This document shows, piece after piece, positions 54,234 through 61,502 of a stretch of DNA of 64,000 nucleotides. The position numbers and the translations under genes were made by a program. The stretch is from an uncultured Clostridia bacterium. GTDB lineage: Bacteria; Bacillota; Clostridia; TANB77; CAG-508. The stretch spans positions 9,645-73,644 of the forward strand of contig CALXVD010000002.1 of the NCBI GenBank assembly GCA_944391865.1. Direction: 5' to 3'. The notes under the pieces are model-generated. The model saw nothing but the letters and a program-made list of their open reading frames with translations. It had not been told where the DNA came from and searched no databases. The stretch's first letter is position 1; each line of letters starts with the position of its first letter.

Positions 54234-54908
54234 TTAAACTACAAATAACAAAATGCAAAGAAAATGCAAGAAGCTTCCTAGAACTATAAATAGATGAAAA
54301 ACAGAATGCATATATTTATGTTTTCTTCCTAAGCCATATAGTATTGCACCTATTGTATATGCTATTCCTCCTGCTACTAGCAAAATTAAACCGTTTGTTC
54401 CTAATAACTTTGGCAATAAATCTGCTCTAAATATTACTGCCCATCCCATAACTAAATAACAAATCATTGAAAATACTTTATATTTTTTTAGGTCAATTGC
54501 GTTTAAAACTATACCGAGTATTGCCATAGCCCATATTAATGCAAATATAGTCCAGCCCAAAATTAAATTGTATTCTCTAAAGCTACACAAAGCAAATGGT
54601 GTATAAGAACCTGCAATAAGCAAAAATATTGTGCAATGATCTAGTACTTGCATTACTTTTTTGCCTGTTGTTTTGGGGCTAAGTCCATGGTATATGCTTG
54701 ACATTGTATATAGAATTATCATTGTTGTTCCATATATGCTACTGCTTACTATACCATAAACATTATTGTGCAATGCCGACATAATAACACACAATATAGT
54801 TGCAACTATTCCTAATACCGCACCAACTATATGTGATGTCATATTAAAAATTTCTTCCCCTTTTGTATAAACAGGTAAAACTCTATCCTTTAATTTGGTT
54901 CTTTTCAT
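54234..54908 (-). CDS. hemolysin III / PAQR-family membrane protein
   Basis: 224 aa, 7 TM helices. EEIFNMTSH..., LDHCTIFLLIAGSYTP, HLFIVLGSFLHF. Confidence 0.85.
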   Translation of the reverse strand: MKRTKLKDRVLPVYTKGEEIFNMTSHIVGAVLGIVATILCVIMSALHNNVYGIVSSSIYGTTMIILYTMSSIYHGLSPKTTGKKVMQVLDHCTIFLLIAGSYTPFALCSFREYNLILGWTIFALIWAMAILGIVLNAIDLKKYKVFSMICYLVMGWAVIFRADLLPKLLGTNGLILLVAGGIAYTIGAILYGLGRKHKYMHSVFHLFIVLGSFLHFLCILLFVV

Positions 54909-55045: not shown

Positions 55046-56278
55046 CTATTTTGTTTTTTTCCTTCTTAAGACTATTCCTTCTTCTAATTTATATGGTATC
55101 TCTAATATTACTTTTTGTCCTTCCCTTCCCGGATTTACAAATTCAATTTCTTTTTTAGTTTCTATATCCCACATTTTTTCTATCTTGAATACTTCAGGTT
55201 CTAATTTGTTTGGTATTAATACTTCTAATGTATCTCCTAATTGCAGCCTATTTCTAATTTCTATTGTATATATATTTTTTTCATTATTACAAATTACTTT
55301 ACCACCAAACTCATAGTCAGGATTATATTGTTTTCCTTCATATTCTTGAAAATCTCTATTATTTTTATCATTAAAATAAAATGTTGTTAAACCTCTCGTT
55401 TTTGTTTTTTCCAATTCTTTTAAATATTTGCTATAATCGTATGCACTTGGATTTTTTATGTAATCATCTATTGCATTTCTATATGCACTTATAACTGTTG
55501 CAAGATAATATTCTGTTTTTAATCTTCCTTCAATTTTTAAACTATCTATTCCCATATCTATTATTTCAGGTAATTCTTTTATTAAACATAAATCTTTTGA
55601 GGAAAGTATATATGTACCATTTACATCTTCGTGAACAGGCATTAAATTTCCAGGGTTATTTTTTTCTTCTATATACATATTATATGCCCATCTGCAACTT
55701 TGTGCACAGTCTCCTAAATTTCCACATCTACCAGCTAAAAAATCACTCAAATGGCATCTTCCAGAATAACTGTAACATATTGCACCATGTACAAATATTT
55801 CTATTTCCATATCTGTATTTTCTTTTATTTTTTTTATTTCATCTTTGCATAGTTCTCTTGCTAAAATAATTCTTGTTGCACCATTTTTCTTCCAGAAATT
55901 ACTTGTGTGGTAACTTGTAACATTTGCTTGCGTACTAATATGTATAGGAATTTCTGGAGCAATGTTTTTTACTAGTTCTACTATTCCACCATCAGATATT
56001 ATAAGTGCATCAACATTTGCTTCCTTTAACTTTGTAACTTGCTCTTCTATTTCATTATACATATTATCTCTTGCATATATATTAAGTGCTGCATATACTT
56101 TTTTGTTTATATTATGTGCATATTTAATAGTTTTTATTAATTCATCATCATCAACACTTACTCTAGAACGTAATGAAAGCTTTGAAGTTCCCATATATAC
56201 AGTATCTGCTCCATATTTAAAAGCAGTCTTTGCTTTTTCAAACGATCCAGCAGGAGCTAATAATTCTGGTTTTATCAT
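55046..56278 (-). CDS. peptidase U32 family protein (YrrO/TrhP-like)
   Basis: 410 aa. PELLAPAGS start and E..HGA.C.SYSGRC motif (EIFVHGAICYSYSGRCHLS). Confidence 0.85.
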   Translation of the reverse strand: MIKPELLAPAGSFEKAKTAFKYGADTVYMGTSKLSLRSRVSVDDDELIKTIKYAHNINKKVYAALNIYARDNMYNEIEEQVTKLKEANVDALIISDGGIVELVKNIAPEIPIHISTQANVTSYHTSNFWKKNGATRIILARELCKDEIKKIKENTDMEIEIFVHGAICYSYSGRCHLSDFLAGRCGNLGDCAQSCRWAYNMYIEEKNNPGNLMPVHEDVNGTYILSSKDLCLIKELPEIIDMGIDSLKIEGRLKTEYYLATVISAYRNAIDDYIKNPSAYDYSKYLKELEKTKTRGLTTFYFNDKNNRDFQEYEGKQYNPDYEFGGKVICNNEKNIYTIEIRNRLQLGDTLEVLIPNKLEPEVFKIEKMWDIETKKEIEFVNPGREGQKVILEIPYKLEEGIVLRRKKTK

Positions 56279-57486
56279 AAACTATGCCCTCCGTTTTCAT
56301 CTTCTACTCTAGCTGCTCCTCCCCAAATATTTTCAATTTGGGCAAGTAATTCATCTTCTAATGGCTCTGTTTCATCAAGTCTATTTACTATCATAGCAAT
56401 TTTTAGTGCACCCCATATCTCTTCTTTTTTATTTTCATCATATTTAGCAGAAGGTATATATTTTCTTAAGAAGGGAAATTGTGAAGCAGTTAAATTATCA
56501 AATTTAGCAGATATTCTTCTGTCTTTACTTTCTTTCCCTGCATTTCTTCTTTCTACAATTATTCTTCTTAAAAATGGCCAGTTTTCCATTAAAGTGTCAT
56601 AAAAATCTTGAAGTTTTAATCCGCGTTTAGTACCTATAAATTTCCATGGAGAATTAACTCCTCTTATTAGTTGTCCGTTTTTAAATTTATTTTCTATCAT
56701 GCTTTCGTCAACTGGCTTGTATTTGCTATGTGAAGCTGTACCTCTTAGGGCATTTTCTTCAACTTCAATTGTTTTAAATTGTGTTTCTATTATAGGCAAT
56801 TGCAATTTAGTTTTAGTTGTATCCATATATTCCTTCATTTCTTCAAATGTTTTTACTAGTTCAGTTAATCTTTCTGGATCTTGAATAAAATGTTGCAAAT
56901 TTGGAAAAATTGGCACCATATTTTTTTTGCTTGAATAATTAGGTATTTCTTTTGAGCGTTTATACTCCTTTGTCTGTGCTGTGTTAACTGTCCTTACTAT
57001 CCATTCCTTTAGGTCTATGTCATGACTTTTGGGTAAAAAATCTCCCATACAATGATAAGCTATATATCCTGATGGTTTATTATATTTTTTATCTTTTGAA
57101 ATCTCAAATTCTAGATGACTAAATAGTGCTAATATTTCCTTATCTGTTTCTGTTGGTGCTACAATTTCCATACCAAAAATATCATCAAGAATTTTCTTAC
57201 CACTATTAATTCTTGAACTAGAAAAATCTTTAATCCTTGCCTTTAGTTTTACATCCCCTATAAGTTCGTTTTGTTTTGCAATTTCTAAACATACATTATA
57301 GTTCTCAACTAATTCTAAAAATCCTTCACCTAGATCTACTATGAATCTTCTATAACCATCTGCTAATTCCCCAATTGTTGGTTGCATTTTCTTAGTTTCA
57401 TCATCAAATCTTTTCTTATCATCTCTTATATTCTTTACTTCTATAGCAAATTGTTCTATAAACTTTTTTCTTTTATCATCTTCCAT
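56275..57486 (-). CDS. divergent RelA/SpoT-domain (nucleotidyltransferase) protein with long insertion and C-terminal extension; toxSAS/CapRel-like candidate
   Basis: 403 aa. Aligns by eye to the SAS at 20048..20701: ARIKDFSSSRINSGKK vs SRIKKPNSIIKK; DIFGMEIVAP vs DVAGIRIVCP; PSGYIAYHCM vs KSGYSSYHLI; IIETQFKTIEVEENALRGTASHSKYKP vs VEIQICTMAMDFWSNLEHEVKYKP. Confidence 0.45.
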   Translation of the reverse strand: MEDDKRKKFIEQFAIEVKNIRDDKKRFDDETKKMQPTIGELADGYRRFIVDLGEGFLELVENYNVCLEIAKQNELIGDVKLKARIKDFSSSRINSGKKILDDIFGMEIVAPTETDKEILALFSHLEFEISKDKKYNKPSGYIAYHCMGDFLPKSHDIDLKEWIVRTVNTAQTKEYKRSKEIPNYSSKKNMVPIFPNLQHFIQDPERLTELVKTFEEMKEYMDTTKTKLQLPIIETQFKTIEVEENALRGTASHSKYKPVDESMIENKFKNGQLIRGVNSPWKFIGTKRGLKLQDFYDTLMENWPFLRRIIVERRNAGKESKDRRISAKFDNLTASQFPFLRKYIPSAKYDENKKEEIWGALKIAMIVNRLDETEPLEDELLAQIENIWGGAARVEDENGGHSL

Positions 57487-57495
57487 ATTTAATTT

Positions 57496-58080
57496 TTAAA
57501 TTAGCACTTTACTTACTGCTAATCCGTCTCCTACCTCTAAAATTTCCGTCTCTAAATTTTCGTTTTCTGTTACCATTTTTATATATTCTCTTAAGTGATT
57601 TACTGCTGTTCTTTGTTTGTGCTTGTTATAATCACTCATAACATATCCTTTATACAAAATATTATCAGCTAAAATTATACTGCCTTTATGTGACAGTCTT
57701 AAAGATTCTTTCAAAAATATAGGATACTTACCCTTTGCTGCATCTATAAAAAACAAATCATATTTTTCATTTAGAGTGGGCAAAACTTCTACTGCATTAC
57801 CCTTTATAACATTTATATGTTGTTTTAGTCCTAGCTTTTTTATATTTTCTATTGCTACATTTGCTCTATTTTCATCTAATTCGATAGTATCAATATAAAC
57901 TTCATTATCTAATATATTAGAAAAACATATTGCTGAATACCCTGTTGCAGTTCCTAATTCTAATATTCTTTTTGGTTTTTCTTCTAACAATATTTTTTCT
58001 ATTACTTCTAATGTGTCATCCATTATAATTGGAATATGTTCTTCCAATGCTTTTTGTTTAATTTGTTCAATATTTATCAC
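57496..58080 (-). CDS. trmR: SAM-dependent O-methyltransferase (YrrM/TrmR-like)
   Basis: 194 aa. Class I MTase motif ILELGTATGYSA and FIDAAKGKY. Synteny with the U32 peptidase as in the B. subtilis yrrMNO locus. Confidence 0.7.
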   Translation of the reverse strand: MINIEQIKQKALEEHIPIIMDDTLEVIEKILLEEKPKRILELGTATGYSAICFSNILDNEVYIDTIELDENRANVAIENIKKLGLKQHINVIKGNAVEVLPTLNEKYDLFFIDAAKGKYPIFLKESLRLSHKGSIILADNILYKGYVMSDYNKHKQRTAVNHLREYIKMVTENENLETEILEVGDGLAVSKVLI

Positions 58081-58424
58081 TTTTCTCTTCCTTTATCATA
58101 CATCTTTCTTTTTTTTAAAGAATTATACCAGTTTTGAAAAACTGTTTTTAAATCTATTCCAGCCTTTGTTAAATAATCGAATTGTTTTTTAATTTCTTCA
58201 TCAGAAGCTAAAATAGTAGTTATTTCCTCTAATGTTTTGTCAGTTTTTAGTCCTTCTTCTATCTTGCTTATTACATTTCTTCTATTTACCGTATCTTGAC
58301 TTTCTGGAGAAGTCTTATTATCTCTAATATACATATTAGAAGAACTTCCTGGCCTATATGTTCCATTTTTATTGATACTCTTTGAATATCTATTATACCT
58401 AGAAGTATGATTATAATCTCTCAT
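58077..58424 (-). CDS. hypothetical basic protein
   Basis: 115 aa. Overlaps the trmR start by 4 nt (coupled). No family recognised. Confidence 0.45.
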   Translation of the reverse strand: MRDYNHTSRYNRYSKSINKNGTYRPGSSSNMYIRDNKTSPESQDTVNRRNVISKIEEGLKTDKTLEEITTILASDEEIKKQFDYLTKAGIDLKTVFQNWYNSLKKRKMYDKGREK

Positions 58425-58429
58425 TTATT

Positions 58430-60239
58430 TTACCTCCTAGTAGCTCTTTCTCTTTCTTTATTATTTAATATCTTCTTTCTTAATCTAATACTTTTTGGTG
58501 TTACTTCAACTAATTCGTCATCTTGTATAAATTCTATTGCTTTTTCTAGGCTCATTTGAATTGGTGGAACAAGTCTTAATGCATCATCCGATCCAGAAGC
58601 TCTAGTATTAGTTAAATGTTTTTCCTTGCAAACATTTACTGCTAGGTCCTCTCCTCTTGAGTTTAATCCAACTATCATTCCTTCATAGACTTCTGTTCCT
58701 GGTCCAATAAATAAATCACCTTTATCTTGAGCATTATATAATCCATATGTTATTGCTTTTCCAGCTTCAAATGCAACAATTGTTCCTCTAGTACGTGATA
58801 CAACATCTCCTTTATAAGGCTCATATGAATCAAATATATGATTCATAGTTCCTTCTCCTTTTGTATCTGTTAAAAATTCTGTTCTATAACCAATTAGTCC
58901 TCTTGCTGGTATCTTAAATTCTATTTTTGTATGGCCATCTTCTGCTGGTTCCATATTTATCATTTCTGCTTTTCTTCTACCTAGTTTTTCTATTACATTT
59001 CCAATGCAATCGTCTGGAACATTTACAACTAATCTTTCAATAGGTTCGCATTTTTCTCCATTTATTTCTTTAATGATAACTTTTGGACGAGATACTAAAA
59101 GCTCAAACCCCTCTCTTCTCATTGTCTCTATTAAAACTGATAAGTGTAATTCTCCGGCGTCCTGCTACTTCAAATGAATCTGGGGAATCTGTTTCTTTTA
59201 CTCTTAAAGATACATTTCTCTCTAATTCTTTAAATAGCCTATCTCTTATATGTCTTGAAGTTACAAACTCTCCTTCTCTTCCTGCAAATGGTCCATTGTT
59301 TACAGAAAAAGTCATTGTAACAGTAGGTTCATCAATGTCTACAAAGTCTATTTTTTCTGGATGATTAATATCACAAATTGTTTCTCCGATATTTATATTA
59401 GTTATTCCAGAAATTTCAACTATATCTCCTGCTTTTGCTTCTTCAACTTCAACTTTTTTTAGTCCCATGTATGTTGAAACTTTAACAACTTTTGCATTTT
59501 CTTGTTTATCTTTTTTGCATACAACAACAGGCATTCCTTCTTTTATAACTCCACGCTCTACTCTACCAACTGCAATTCTTCCAACATAATCATCATAATC
59601 TATATTAGAAACAAGCATTTGCATTGGTCTATCTTCATCGCATTTTGGCGGTTCTATTGTGTTTATAATAGTTTCAAAAACACATTTCATATCTTTTGCT
59701 TCATCATCTAAATTCATTTTTGCAACACCTTGTTTTGCAGAAGCATATATTACTGGAAAATCAAGTTGTTCATCATTTGCTCCAAGCTCTATAAATAGCT
59801 CTAATACATCATCTACAACTTTTAATGGTCTTGCACCAGGCCTATCTATTTTATTTATAACAACAATTGGTTTTAAATTAAGTGCTAAAGATTTTTTTAA
59901 AACTTCTCTTGTTTGAGGCATTGCCCCTTCAAATGCGTCAACAAGTAATAATACACCATCTACCATTTTTAAAACACGTTCAACTTCTCCACCAAAGTCA
60001 GCATGTCCAGGTGTATCTACTATATTTATTTTTATGTCGTTATATATAACAGAAGTGTTTTTTGCAAGTATAGTAATTCCTCTTTCTTTTTCTAGATCAT
60101 TAGAATCCATTACTCTTTCTTGTACTTGCTCATTTTCTCTAAAAGTTCCACTTTGTTTTAGTAAAGCATCTACTAAAGTCGTTTTTCCATGATCTACGTG
60201 TGCTATAATTGCTACGTTTCTAATTTTTTCATTGCTCAT
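58430..60239 (-). CDS. typA: translational GTPase TypA/BipA (needs +1 recoding at CGG 59154-59156)
   Basis: G1 AHVDHGKTT and G3 DTPGHADF. Pieces 59103..60239 and 58430..59122 join as [32 protein letters not shown]. Confidence 0.92.
59154..59156 (-). other. in-frame CGG, +1 recoding site (typA)
   Basis: GGA CGC CGG AGA ATT becomes [21 protein letters not shown]. Confidence 0.85.
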
Positions 60240-60359: not shown

Positions 60360-61502
60360 TTACACAAACTCTTCCCATACTAAATTTGCTAGGTCTATTC
60401 CTTTATTTGTTAGCTTTATATTGTCTATATCTATTTCAATTAATTCTTGGCAAGCTAATTTGTTAAGTATTTCTCTATATAAATAAATAGGATTATCTAC
60501 AAATTTATTTTTAAATTCTGATATTTTTACTCCTTCTACTTTTCTTAAACCCAATAACATATATTCTTTCATCTTGTTTGCTTTATTTTGCTTCTCATGT
60601 ACAATTCGCATATGTTGGTCGCCGCACATTTAATCCTCTGCAAATATAATTATCTAAATTTTCTGTATTAGAATATCTCGTATTATTTATATATGAATGT
60701 GCTGCAAGTCCAAAACCAATGTATTCTTCTTGATTCCAACATGACAAATTATGTCTTGATTCATAATCTTGTTTTGCAAAATTAGATATTTCATAGTGTA
60801 TGTAACCTTGTTTTTCTAATTTTTTTTTTACCTTCCAATACATTTTTCTTTCTAGTTCTTCTGGTGGCAAAAAAAGTTCTTTTTTGTTTATTTTTTCTTC
60901 TATTGGCGTGCCTTCCTCTACAATTAAAGAATAAACTGATATATGTTCTGGTCCGCAAATTAATTATTTCCGATAAGTCTTTTTGGACATCTTCCAAATT
61001 TTCAGTTGGAAGTCCTATCATTAAGTCTACATTAATATTTTTAAATCCTATTTTTCTTGCTAGATTATATCCGTTCCAAAAATGTACGATAATTGTGGAT
61101 TCTTCCTATTAATTTTAGTAAATCATTATTTGTACTTTGAAGTCCAAAGCTAATTCTATTTATTCCAGAATTATAGTAATCTTTTAGTTTTTCCTCATTT
61201 ACTGTTCCTGGGTTTACTTCTATTGTAATTTCTGCATTTTCTGAAATTTTGAATTTCTGTTTCATTGTTTTTAAAATATCTATTATATATTTACTTTCTA
61301 TATATGATGGAGTTCCTCCTCCAAAGTATATTGTACTAACTAGATATTCTTCTTTATTGATTTTATAATTCTTTATTTCTTGTTTTAATGTTTCTATGTA
61401 TTTATCTACCAAATTTTCTTTGTTTGAAAATGATATAAAATCACAATAATTGCATTTTTTCACGCAAAATGGTATGTGTACATATATTCCTAAATTTTTC
61501 AT
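60360..61502 (-). CDS. hemW: radical SAM heme chaperone HemW / oxygen-independent coproporphyrinogen oxidase-like (needs +1 recoding at three CGG codons)
   Basis: CxxxCxxC (FCVKKCNYCDF). Four ORF pieces join at 61071 (FLE-GYNLARKIGF), 60953 (INL-GPEHISVYSLIVEEGTP) and 60622 (GLNV-GDQHMRIV). Confidence 0.85.
60622..60624 (-). other. in-frame CGG, +1 recoding site (hemW, 3rd)
   Basis: AAT GTG CGG CGA CCA becomes L-N-V-G-D-Q-H-M-R-I-V (GGC as the +1 codon). Confidence 0.7.
60953..60955 (-). other. in-frame CGG, +1 recoding site (hemW, 2nd)
   Basis: AAT TTG CGG ACC AGA becomes N-L-G-P-E-H-I-S-V-Y-S-L-I-V-E-E-G-T-P. Confidence 0.85.
61071..61073 (-). other. in-frame CGG, +1 recoding site (hemW, 1st)
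   Basis: TTG GAA CGG ATA TAA becomes F-L-E-G-Y-N-L-A-R-K-I-G-F-K-N-I-N-V-D-L. Confidence 0.8.

Follow-up and report, generated by a model that had tools for sequence, protein, structure and literature searches.

How a protein bearing the landmarks of a RelA/SpoT synthetase came to lie between two tRNA-modification genes is the question raised by gene X, a 403-aa open reading frame (ORF) at 56275..57486 in a 64,000-nucleotide stretch of DNA (the window) from an uncultured Clostridia bacterium (assembly GCA_944391865.1, contig CALXVD010000002.1). All window features named below lie on the minus strand. RelA/SpoT-type synthetases are known as makers of stress signals and, more recently, as phage-defence toxins that poison tRNA. 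A sequence-only reading of the window reported the 403-aa frame, which is indeed open and present in the window's ORF list, and proposed its product as a candidate divergent toxic small alarmone synthetase (toxSAS) of the CapRel kind inserted into a tRNA-modification cluster. The synthetase fold is borne out by motif conservation, structure prediction, profile searches and a transitive link to Pfam; the toxSAS and CapRel assignments are not. X belongs, as its long form, to a subfamily that occurs in just one family of gut Clostridia, which are uncultured and have small genomes. The preferred reading, held at a little under an even chance on the strength of sequence and model, is that X may be a catalytically competent ATP-dependent pyrophosphotransferase of an undescribed, chromosomal and non-mobile subfamily resembling the small alarmone synthetases (SASs), with a non-canonical acceptor.

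X is a very divergent RelA/SpoT synthetase-fold protein with an intact catalytic core. The landmarks ARIKDF, DDIFGMEIVAP, PSGYIAYHCM, IIETQFKT and SHSKYKP, picked out by the sequence-only reading, are all located in the protein. The Pfam RelA_SpoT model gives X 22.4 bits against a gathering cut-off of 27, with the match limited to residues 226-257. NCBIfam and PADLOC scans (the latter at E<=1) return no match to X, a single-sequence search of the PDB gives only a spurious G-alpha match, and none of the 80 homologue clusters of X carries an annotation. In an alignment of 45 homologues, R84, K86, D87, K98, D102, G105, Y141, H145, H253, Y256 and K257 are invariant and E234 is close to it. A broader superfamily alignment of 52 sequences, with an overall identity of 20-30%, keeps R84, K86, K98, D102, G105, Y141, E234, Y256 and K257 invariant and H145 near-invariant; S90 and N94 are also near-invariant, and residue 236 is either Gln or His.

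Structure prediction points the same way. The AlphaFold2 model of X has a predicted local distance difference test score (pLDDT) of 83.7 and a predicted template modelling score (pTM) of 0.82. The first 23 Foldseek matches in the PDB are all synthetases of the RelA/SpoT homologue (RSH) superfamily (SAS1, RelP, SAS2, SpoT, RelSeq and RelA), for example SAS1 5dec_A with an E-value of 2.6e-3, a probability of 1.0 and a TM-score of 0.53 on the target, and the leading matches in the viral library are RelA/SpoT and Tas1-like proteins. This comparison, proposed in the sequence-only reading, returned the RSH fold with its catalytic residues and no other nucleotidyltransferase fold. Against PDB sequences, the family profile finds YjbM/SAS1 (1.5e-5), RelSeq (4e-5) and RelP (8e-5), so that the family is nearer to housekeeping RelQ, RelP and Rel (1.5e-5 to 1e-4) than to the toxin FaRel2 (1.8e-3). 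Searched with the profile of the superfamily alignment, related genomes yield their canonical Rel and SAS proteins with E-values of about 1e-9. Relatives of about 240 and 330-350 aa exceed the Pfam RelA_SpoT threshold over the whole domain, scoring 27-37 bits together and 31-37 bits for the short members. As X itself stays under that threshold, its membership in the superfamily rests on transitive homology and fold.

The catalytic core is divided in two. Its first half, residues 79-150 (57037..57252), is defined by the invariant columns and by alignment to YjbM and to the window's own SAS. It carries the ATP phosphate site R84-x-K86-x3-S90-x3-N94-x3-K98, the Mg2+ Asp motif D102-x2-G105 and the acceptor-stacking Tyr in G140-Y141-x3-H145. 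The second half, residues 230-262 (56701..56799), is placed by the alignments and the partial Pfam match and comprises P231, E234-x-Q236 with the catalytic Glu, and H253-x2-Y256-K257. Residues in X are assigned from the roles of R64, K66, S70, K74, R77, D90, R95 and Y128 in FaRel2 (PMC11782079). By this analogy X has all three elements: a donor-ATP phosphate site matching FaRel2 R64/K66/S70, an Mg2+ Asp matching D90 and an acceptor-stacking Tyr matching Y128.

The exception is the acceptor side. In the canonical D-x-x-G-x-R motif of RelQ and of the window's own SAS an Arg follows the Gly, equivalent to R95 of FaRel2, which contacts and holds the acceptor adenine (PMC11782079). X has Glu107 at this position, as does most of its family (consensus FGxEI), and a few short members retain FGIRI. 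Since the acceptor-base Arg of RelQ, Rel and FaRel2 is a Glu in X, we infer that the acceptor is not canonical GDP or GTP; the enzyme would move the beta,gamma-pyrophosphate of ATP to the 3'-OH of some other molecule. The best guess is a free nucleotide, which would yield an alarmone-type signal made alongside the translation and tRNA-modification genes, with a tRNA 3' end as the alternative.

Around this core the long form has acquired several further parts. Residues 1-78 (57253..57486) form two long helices (2-34 and 38-72 in the AlphaFold2 model) of acidic character (isoelectric point, pI, 4.8), in which Y45 is near-invariant in both alignments. The sequence-only reading had counted a 60-aa N-terminal extension, which is overstated: SASs also possess N-terminal helices, and the motif Arg, residue 84 in X, is at about residue 67 in the SAS of the window. 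The predicted insertion of about 80 aa before the E-x-Q strand is real and corresponds to residues 151-229 (56800..57036), with a dip in pLDDT at residues 171-190. It is missing from the forms of about 240 aa and is replaced by an unrelated insertion in those of about 330-350 aa. The possibility that it disrupts the active site was considered and rejected, the superfamily alignment and the model placing it at the distal turn between the Y..H and E-x-Q strands.

What had been described as a single C-terminal domain of 130 aa is present but consists of two parts. Residues 263-312 (56551..56700) form a basic (pI 10) beta-hairpin and helix element, outlined by the superfamily alignment and the model, with strands at 281-286 and 289-292 and the residues R275, G276, P280, K282, F283 ... 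W303, P304. P280 is invariant and P304 near-invariant in the superfamily alignment, and the element occurs in every form of the family and is absent from canonical SASs. Residues 313-388 (56323..56550) are a helical extension confined to the long forms. They are followed by a tail, residues 389-403 and the stop codon (56275..56322), that is disordered (pLDDT <50) and ends in GGHSL, or GGxSL, in close relatives. When the C-terminal 142 residues are modelled separately they again give a hairpin and helices (pLDDT 82), and Foldseek finds no fold match for this model in the PDB (best E 2.6, probability <=0.15). In the long form the core would have gained a distal subdomain as well as a C-terminal domain that is helical and novel; this second addition probably regulates activity or docks a partner. 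The whole protein has a pI of 6.4, close to the family median of about 6, and its basic patches are confined to residues 263-312 and the insertion.

The housekeeping enzymes RelQ/SAS1 (YjbM) and RelP/SAS2 are the closest profile and fold matches to X. They share with it the motifs R-x-K...S...K, D-x-x-G, G-Y-x-x-x-H, E-x-Q and Y-K; the short members of the family are similar to them in size (about 230-250 aa), and both are chromosomal and lack an antitoxin. A housekeeping SAS is a single-domain protein of about 210-240 aa that makes (p)ppGpp from ATP and GDP or GTP. X, in contrast, has 403 aa with the additional P...WP element, 80-aa insertion and 90-aa helical extension, scores under the Pfam gathering threshold, has Glu in place of Arg after the motif Gly and is acidic rather than basic. 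A canonical comparison point lies in the window itself: the reference SAS at 20048..20701 used by the sequence-only reading is a genuine RelQ-like protein (Pfam RelA_SpoT, 104 bits; pI 9.3), with its strand now given as minus.

The family is small and old. A profile search run exhaustively over 1.84 billion representative proteins yields only 119 relatives in three length classes (about 240, 330-350 and about 400 aa), with intact frames of 229-492 aa in dozens of species. In a scan of one genome per prokaryotic species there are 37 loci in 36 genomes, all of them metagenome-assembled genomes (MAGs) of uncultured gut Clostridia, among them Clostridium sp. CAG:273; the samples include rabbit, goat and human ones. 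Throughout the order, strong matches are confined to the GTDB family of the window's own organism. In 28 of the 37 loci and 27 of the 36 genomes (one genome being divided between two contigs) the family member lies on one strand between a methyltransferase gene, trmR, and a U32 peptidase-type gene, trhP. Long, mid and short forms as well as tandem pairs occupy this slot, often with translational coupling, and metagenome contigs agree. The tandem pairs comprise 408 + 342 aa (L037, 38-2386) and 330 + 491 aa (L051 and L053, 2434-4909), the 491-aa form having an additional N-terminal region of about 190 aa without a family match. At the remaining nine loci a short form stands outside the slot, alone among housekeeping genes, for example directly 5' of rpsJ or between ATP-grasp and amidase genes, and in these lineages the trmR-trhP linkage itself is broken.

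A maximum-likelihood tree separates the family as a monophyletic group from canonical SASs with a support of 96/96. Forms located in the operon are spread over at least four deep clades, those found elsewhere make up one clade and one stray, and the long forms are a single clade on a long stem. Given this distribution of operon and stray forms, the family would most simply have had its original home in the trmR-trhP slot. The two genes directly adjoin each other in other families within the order (L033, L035). Together with the restriction of strong matches to one family, this indicates that X is an ancient, lineage-specific addition. The suggestion that X interrupts a gene cluster is supported by the sister families; the idea of a one-off insertion is not, as three length classes share the slot in 27 of the 36 genomes.

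The neighbours in the window place X between trmR and a TrhP-type U32 gene, as the sequence-only reading had it. On its 5' side, at 57496..58080, a 194-aa S-adenosylmethionine-dependent O-methyltransferase of the TrmR type, which converts 5-hydroxyuridine (ho5U) to 5-methoxyuridine (mo5U), matches Pfam Methyltransf_3 with 101 bits. Among solved structures, B. subtilis YrrM/TrmR (5zw3, E 4.4e-33) is closest to it, and 8k1f, a 'tRNA 5-hydroxyuridine methyltransferase', comes next. On the 3' side the 410-aa product of 55046..56278 scores 304.8 bits for Peptidase_U32 and 49.8 bits for U32_C; its top NCBIfam model is TrhP PRK15452 at 355 bits, under the equivalog cut-off of that model. Both E. coli TrhP and B. 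subtilis YrrO/TrhP1 combine Peptidase_U32 with U32_C in this way (PMC6599085). X itself shows no U32 similarity in the Pfam scan, so that a divergent YrrN-like U32 protein was rejected as its identity. Elsewhere in the genome there is just one further U32 gene, whose single frame of 846 aa encodes two U32 domains (G000 contig C5, 9431-11455, minus strand).

The three genes are tightly packed. Nine nucleotides separate the trmR stop from the X start, and the X stop shares 4 nt (ATGA) with the ATG of the U32 gene, an overlap the sequence-only reading had recorded correctly. The Shine-Dalgarno sequence of the U32 gene, GGAGGG (56287-56292), falls within the final codons of X, and a scan reported no terminator-like sites at the trmR-X and X-trhP junctions. 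An unbroken same-strand run extends from typA/bipA (58430..60239), its first gene, through a 115-aa ORF (58077..58424), trmR, X and the U32 gene to a gene for a HlyIII-type membrane protein (54234..54908). The 115-aa protein, 5' of trmR, is basic (pI 9.6) and has no assigned function; its gene shares 4 nt with the trmR start, is kept with or without X and is duplicated in the relative G002 (L020, 109-822).

This arrangement resembles the yrrM-yrrN-yrrO (trmR-trhP2-trhP1) operon of B. subtilis, where the genes also share one strand and run from a TrmR-like gene to a TrhP1-type U32 + U32_C gene. Between these two, however, B. subtilis has a gene for a second U32 protein, YrrN, that is needed for ho5U, whereas here the RSH-fold X takes that place, and the sister families in the order have no middle gene at all.

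The suspicion of phage defence was pursued through architecture, partners and mobility. CapRel is a fusion of a toxSAS with a pseudo-zinc-finger antitoxin domain (pZFD) that senses phage capsids, and a YxxY switch blocks its donor site. X resembles it as a single polypeptide of similar length with an N-terminal RSH core and an additional C-terminal domain. The CapRel architecture is nevertheless not borne out. The C-terminal domain is helical, without a match to any solved fold including 7ZTB, residues 263-403 contain no YxxY motif, and CapRel (7ZTB) was not recovered by profile and fold searches with full X or with the C-terminal model. As that model has no fold match in the PDB, the domain is not a pZFD. 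Unlike CapRel, X was not found on prophages or in defence islands and sits in a housekeeping operon, and PADLOC, whose RSH model PDC-S33 matches the RelQ-like SAS of the window (1.3e-22), has no match to the X family. A CapRel-type fused toxin-antitoxin was rejected on these grounds.

A toxSAS arrangement with a separate antitoxin fares no better. The toxins FaRel2 and PhRel2 share the RSH core with X, and X and FaRel2 are both accessory genes. FaRel2, however, has a small cognate antitoxin, ATfaRel2, and X has no such partner. No adjacent antitoxin of the pZFD/ATfaRel2-like, Panacea, Tis1-like or small alarmone hydrolase (SAH) type was found at the locus, where the neighbours are TrmR- and TrhP-like and persist without X; nor is there a partner gene beside the stand-alone short forms. 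A stand-alone alarmone hydrolase is also missing from the genome, whose sole HD_4 hydrolase domain belongs to the long Rel. This domain (G000 contig C4, 64656-65616, minus strand) occurs as two overlapping pieces in different frames with stops nearby, which suggests a further frame shift inside an essential Rel gene. The implied mobile defence insertion finds no support either. Homologues of X were not found on phages or plasmids (tblastn) or on IMG/VR contigs (pattern scan), no direct or inverted repeats flank the gene, and its GC content of 0.28-0.31 is similar to that of the neighbouring genes. A mobile defence insertion was accordingly rejected.

Several observations nevertheless weigh against the preferred reading of X as a pyrophosphotransferase of SAS-like type, and most of them concern its status as a dispensable, fast-evolving accessory gene. 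X is missing or replaced in many genomes of the same genus, with a clear copy in about 12 of 27, although both presence and absence are judged in part from incomplete MAGs. X-less genomes with U32 proteins 83-86% identical to that of the window are nested among carriers whose U32 proteins are only 74-76% identical to it. The insertion site, whose conservation the sequence-only reading wanted checked, proves to be patchily occupied, and TrhP and TrmR are retained. The trmR-trhP gaps of X-less relatives measure 176-385 bp and hold no remnants of X detectable by tblastn. Three of them contain an opposite-strand ORF of about 85-93 aa without a Pfam or PADLOC match (L022, 1169-1438, minus strand; L026, 1117-1479, plus strand; L027, gap 2791-3109; from genomes G024, G019 and G003), with the conserved stretches RKFQPKITP ... 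GLKPIRN. In G014 the gap holds a canonical RelA_SpoT gene on the opposite strand (270 aa, 76 bits; L023, 2851-3660, plus strand), a second, independent RSH-type gene at this junction, and in G002 and G023 the slot is filled by family members of 332 and 298 aa. X also diverges two to three times as much as its neighbours: in L038 it is 67% identical, compared with 85% for trmR, 97% for the U32 protein and 93% for the HlyIII-type protein, and in L045 40% compared with 74% and 77% for the neighbours. Turnover of this cassette-like kind, together with rapid evolution, typically marks conflict genes and favours a toxin. The genome, moreover, already encodes a Rel and a RelQ-like SAS, so that a third alarmone synthetase needs a reason. 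The conserved position may reflect inherited gene order rather than functional coupling, since the whole typA-trmR-trhP block is conserved too. What the preferred reading says of function is inference throughout, and its acceptor a guess.

The same turnover underlies the most serious competitor, which we regard as rather unlikely: that X is a self-contained toxSAS-like effector whose core pyrophosphorylates the tRNA 3'-CCA end or makes (pp)pApp, the trmR-trhP junction being a hotspot for cassettes. The C-terminal domain of the long form would then inhibit the core in cis until a trigger such as phage infection arrives, following the logic of CapRel with an unrelated regulatory domain. The intact core, the patchy occurrence and rapid evolution of X, and a slot that may contain a long, mid, short or tandem X, the canonical RelA_SpoT gene of G014, a small reverse ORF or nothing are all consistent with this, as are the pTM of 0.82, which suggests tight packing of the C-terminal domain on the core, and the continuum of toxicity formed by SASs (PMC7229694). 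Yet forms of about 240 aa exist without an extra domain or partner, in housekeeping operons or alone. The fold searches recover no CapRel or other pZFD-containing chain and the YxxY motif is lacking, while PADLOC, phages, plasmids and viral contigs yield nothing. The N-terminal region of X is acidic, whereas that of FaRel2 is the tRNA-recognising part (PMC11782079). The slot, finally, is ancestral and stable over deep clades, and its contents are almost solely RSH-type genes, unlike the mixed systems of defence hotspots. Such an address could instead mean that X works as an accessory to the anaerobic pathway in which TrhP hydroxylates and TrmR methylates the wobble uridine. X would then act on the substrate tRNAs or on the enzymes, or supply or regulate a nucleotide-derived co-substrate. 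This too is unlikely, slightly more so than a toxin. It would account for the recurrence of trmR-X-trhP, with its tight or overlapping gene junctions, in 27 of 36 genomes across all length classes and tandem pairs, for the unrelated canonical RSH gene at the same junction in G014, and for the position of X where B. subtilis has its second U32 gene yrrN in yrrM-yrrN-yrrO (PMC6599085). The order also lacks chorismate synthase, so that the prephenate on which E. coli TrhP depends cannot be made there. However, every relative examined keeps both TrhP and TrmR, and many of them do so without X, so X cannot be required; the X-less families of the order are equally without chorismate synthase, some lineages carry X far from both genes, and the conserved order is possibly a matter of inheritance only. 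No RSH-fold enzyme has a known part in base modification.

A more specific version of this pathway role, in which the RSH fold would have been taken over for the sole service of anaerobic wobble-uridine (xo5U34) modification in an order unable to make prephenate, acting on the substrate tRNAs or making a nucleotide-derived factor and in this way tuning TrhP and TrmR, is doubtful and must count as a long shot. Least probable by far, and hardly to be expected, is that X is a decaying or catalytically dead remnant retained for the ribosome-binding site and coupling signal of trhP in its 3' end. The Shine-Dalgarno sequence within its tail, its fast evolution and the loss of the motif Gly and Tyr in the member from G418 fit a remnant, but ten catalytic and structural residues are invariant at only 20-30% identity, dozens of species have intact frames (229-492 aa), and the fold is predicted with confidence. 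The G418 protein itself, a 262-aa member in the trmR-trhP slot (L081, 2599-3384) with DDIFATTI and FVAEH in place of the motifs, may be an inactive copy.

The sequence-only reading also hinted at a link between X and unusual decoding in this genome. Under translation table 11 typA is read as ORFs of 378 and 230 aa, and becomes one 602-aa BipA if a single decoding step takes in CGGA at codon 362, the shift lying at about 59150-59157. The split occurs at the same place in the closest relatives (L001, L038-L041, L044 and L049), and typA is intact in more distant ones. In-frame CGG codons are absent from X, from its neighbours trmR and trhP, and from the small ORF. As the family is also present in lineages with an unbroken typA, a connection of X with +1 decoding at CGG is unsupported and was rejected. 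Elsewhere in the window, at 60360-61112, a HemW/HemN-like radical-SAM gene is broken up into three short ORFs of 76-91 aa that lie in different frames, possibly through further CGG shifts.

A different peculiarity concerns the neighbour of X. Chorismate synthase (PF01264) is absent from 31 of 31 genomes of the order, 18 of them of high quality, and present in 14 of 14 controls. E. coli TrhP needs prephenate. Without chorismate synthase prephenate cannot be made, which leaves the source of oxygen or co-substrate for ho5U in these organisms unexplained, and a TrhP-type U32 gene is present in every relative examined all the same. The context of X in this way raises the question of how TrhP-type hydroxylation proceeds in organisms without a chorismate pathway.

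A literature search returned no paper combining 'alarmone synthetase' and 'peptidase U32'. Besides alarmone signalling and phage defence, the X family represents a third kind of setting for RelA/SpoT synthetases: a divergent, lineage-restricted subfamily housed in an operon of translation-factor and tRNA-modification genes. Its acceptor site is altered, its members come in three length classes, and the fold of its C-terminal domain is unmatched. Because X scores below the Pfam threshold, is blank in NCBIfam and PADLOC and has only unannotated homologues, the family would extend the catalogue of RSH subfamilies. Its proteins of about 240, 330 and 400 aa offer a small set with which acceptor choice and toxicity can be probed within the RSH fold. 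If the role as an xo5U34 accessory were true, it would be a RelA/SpoT function outside both alarmone signalling and toxin action.

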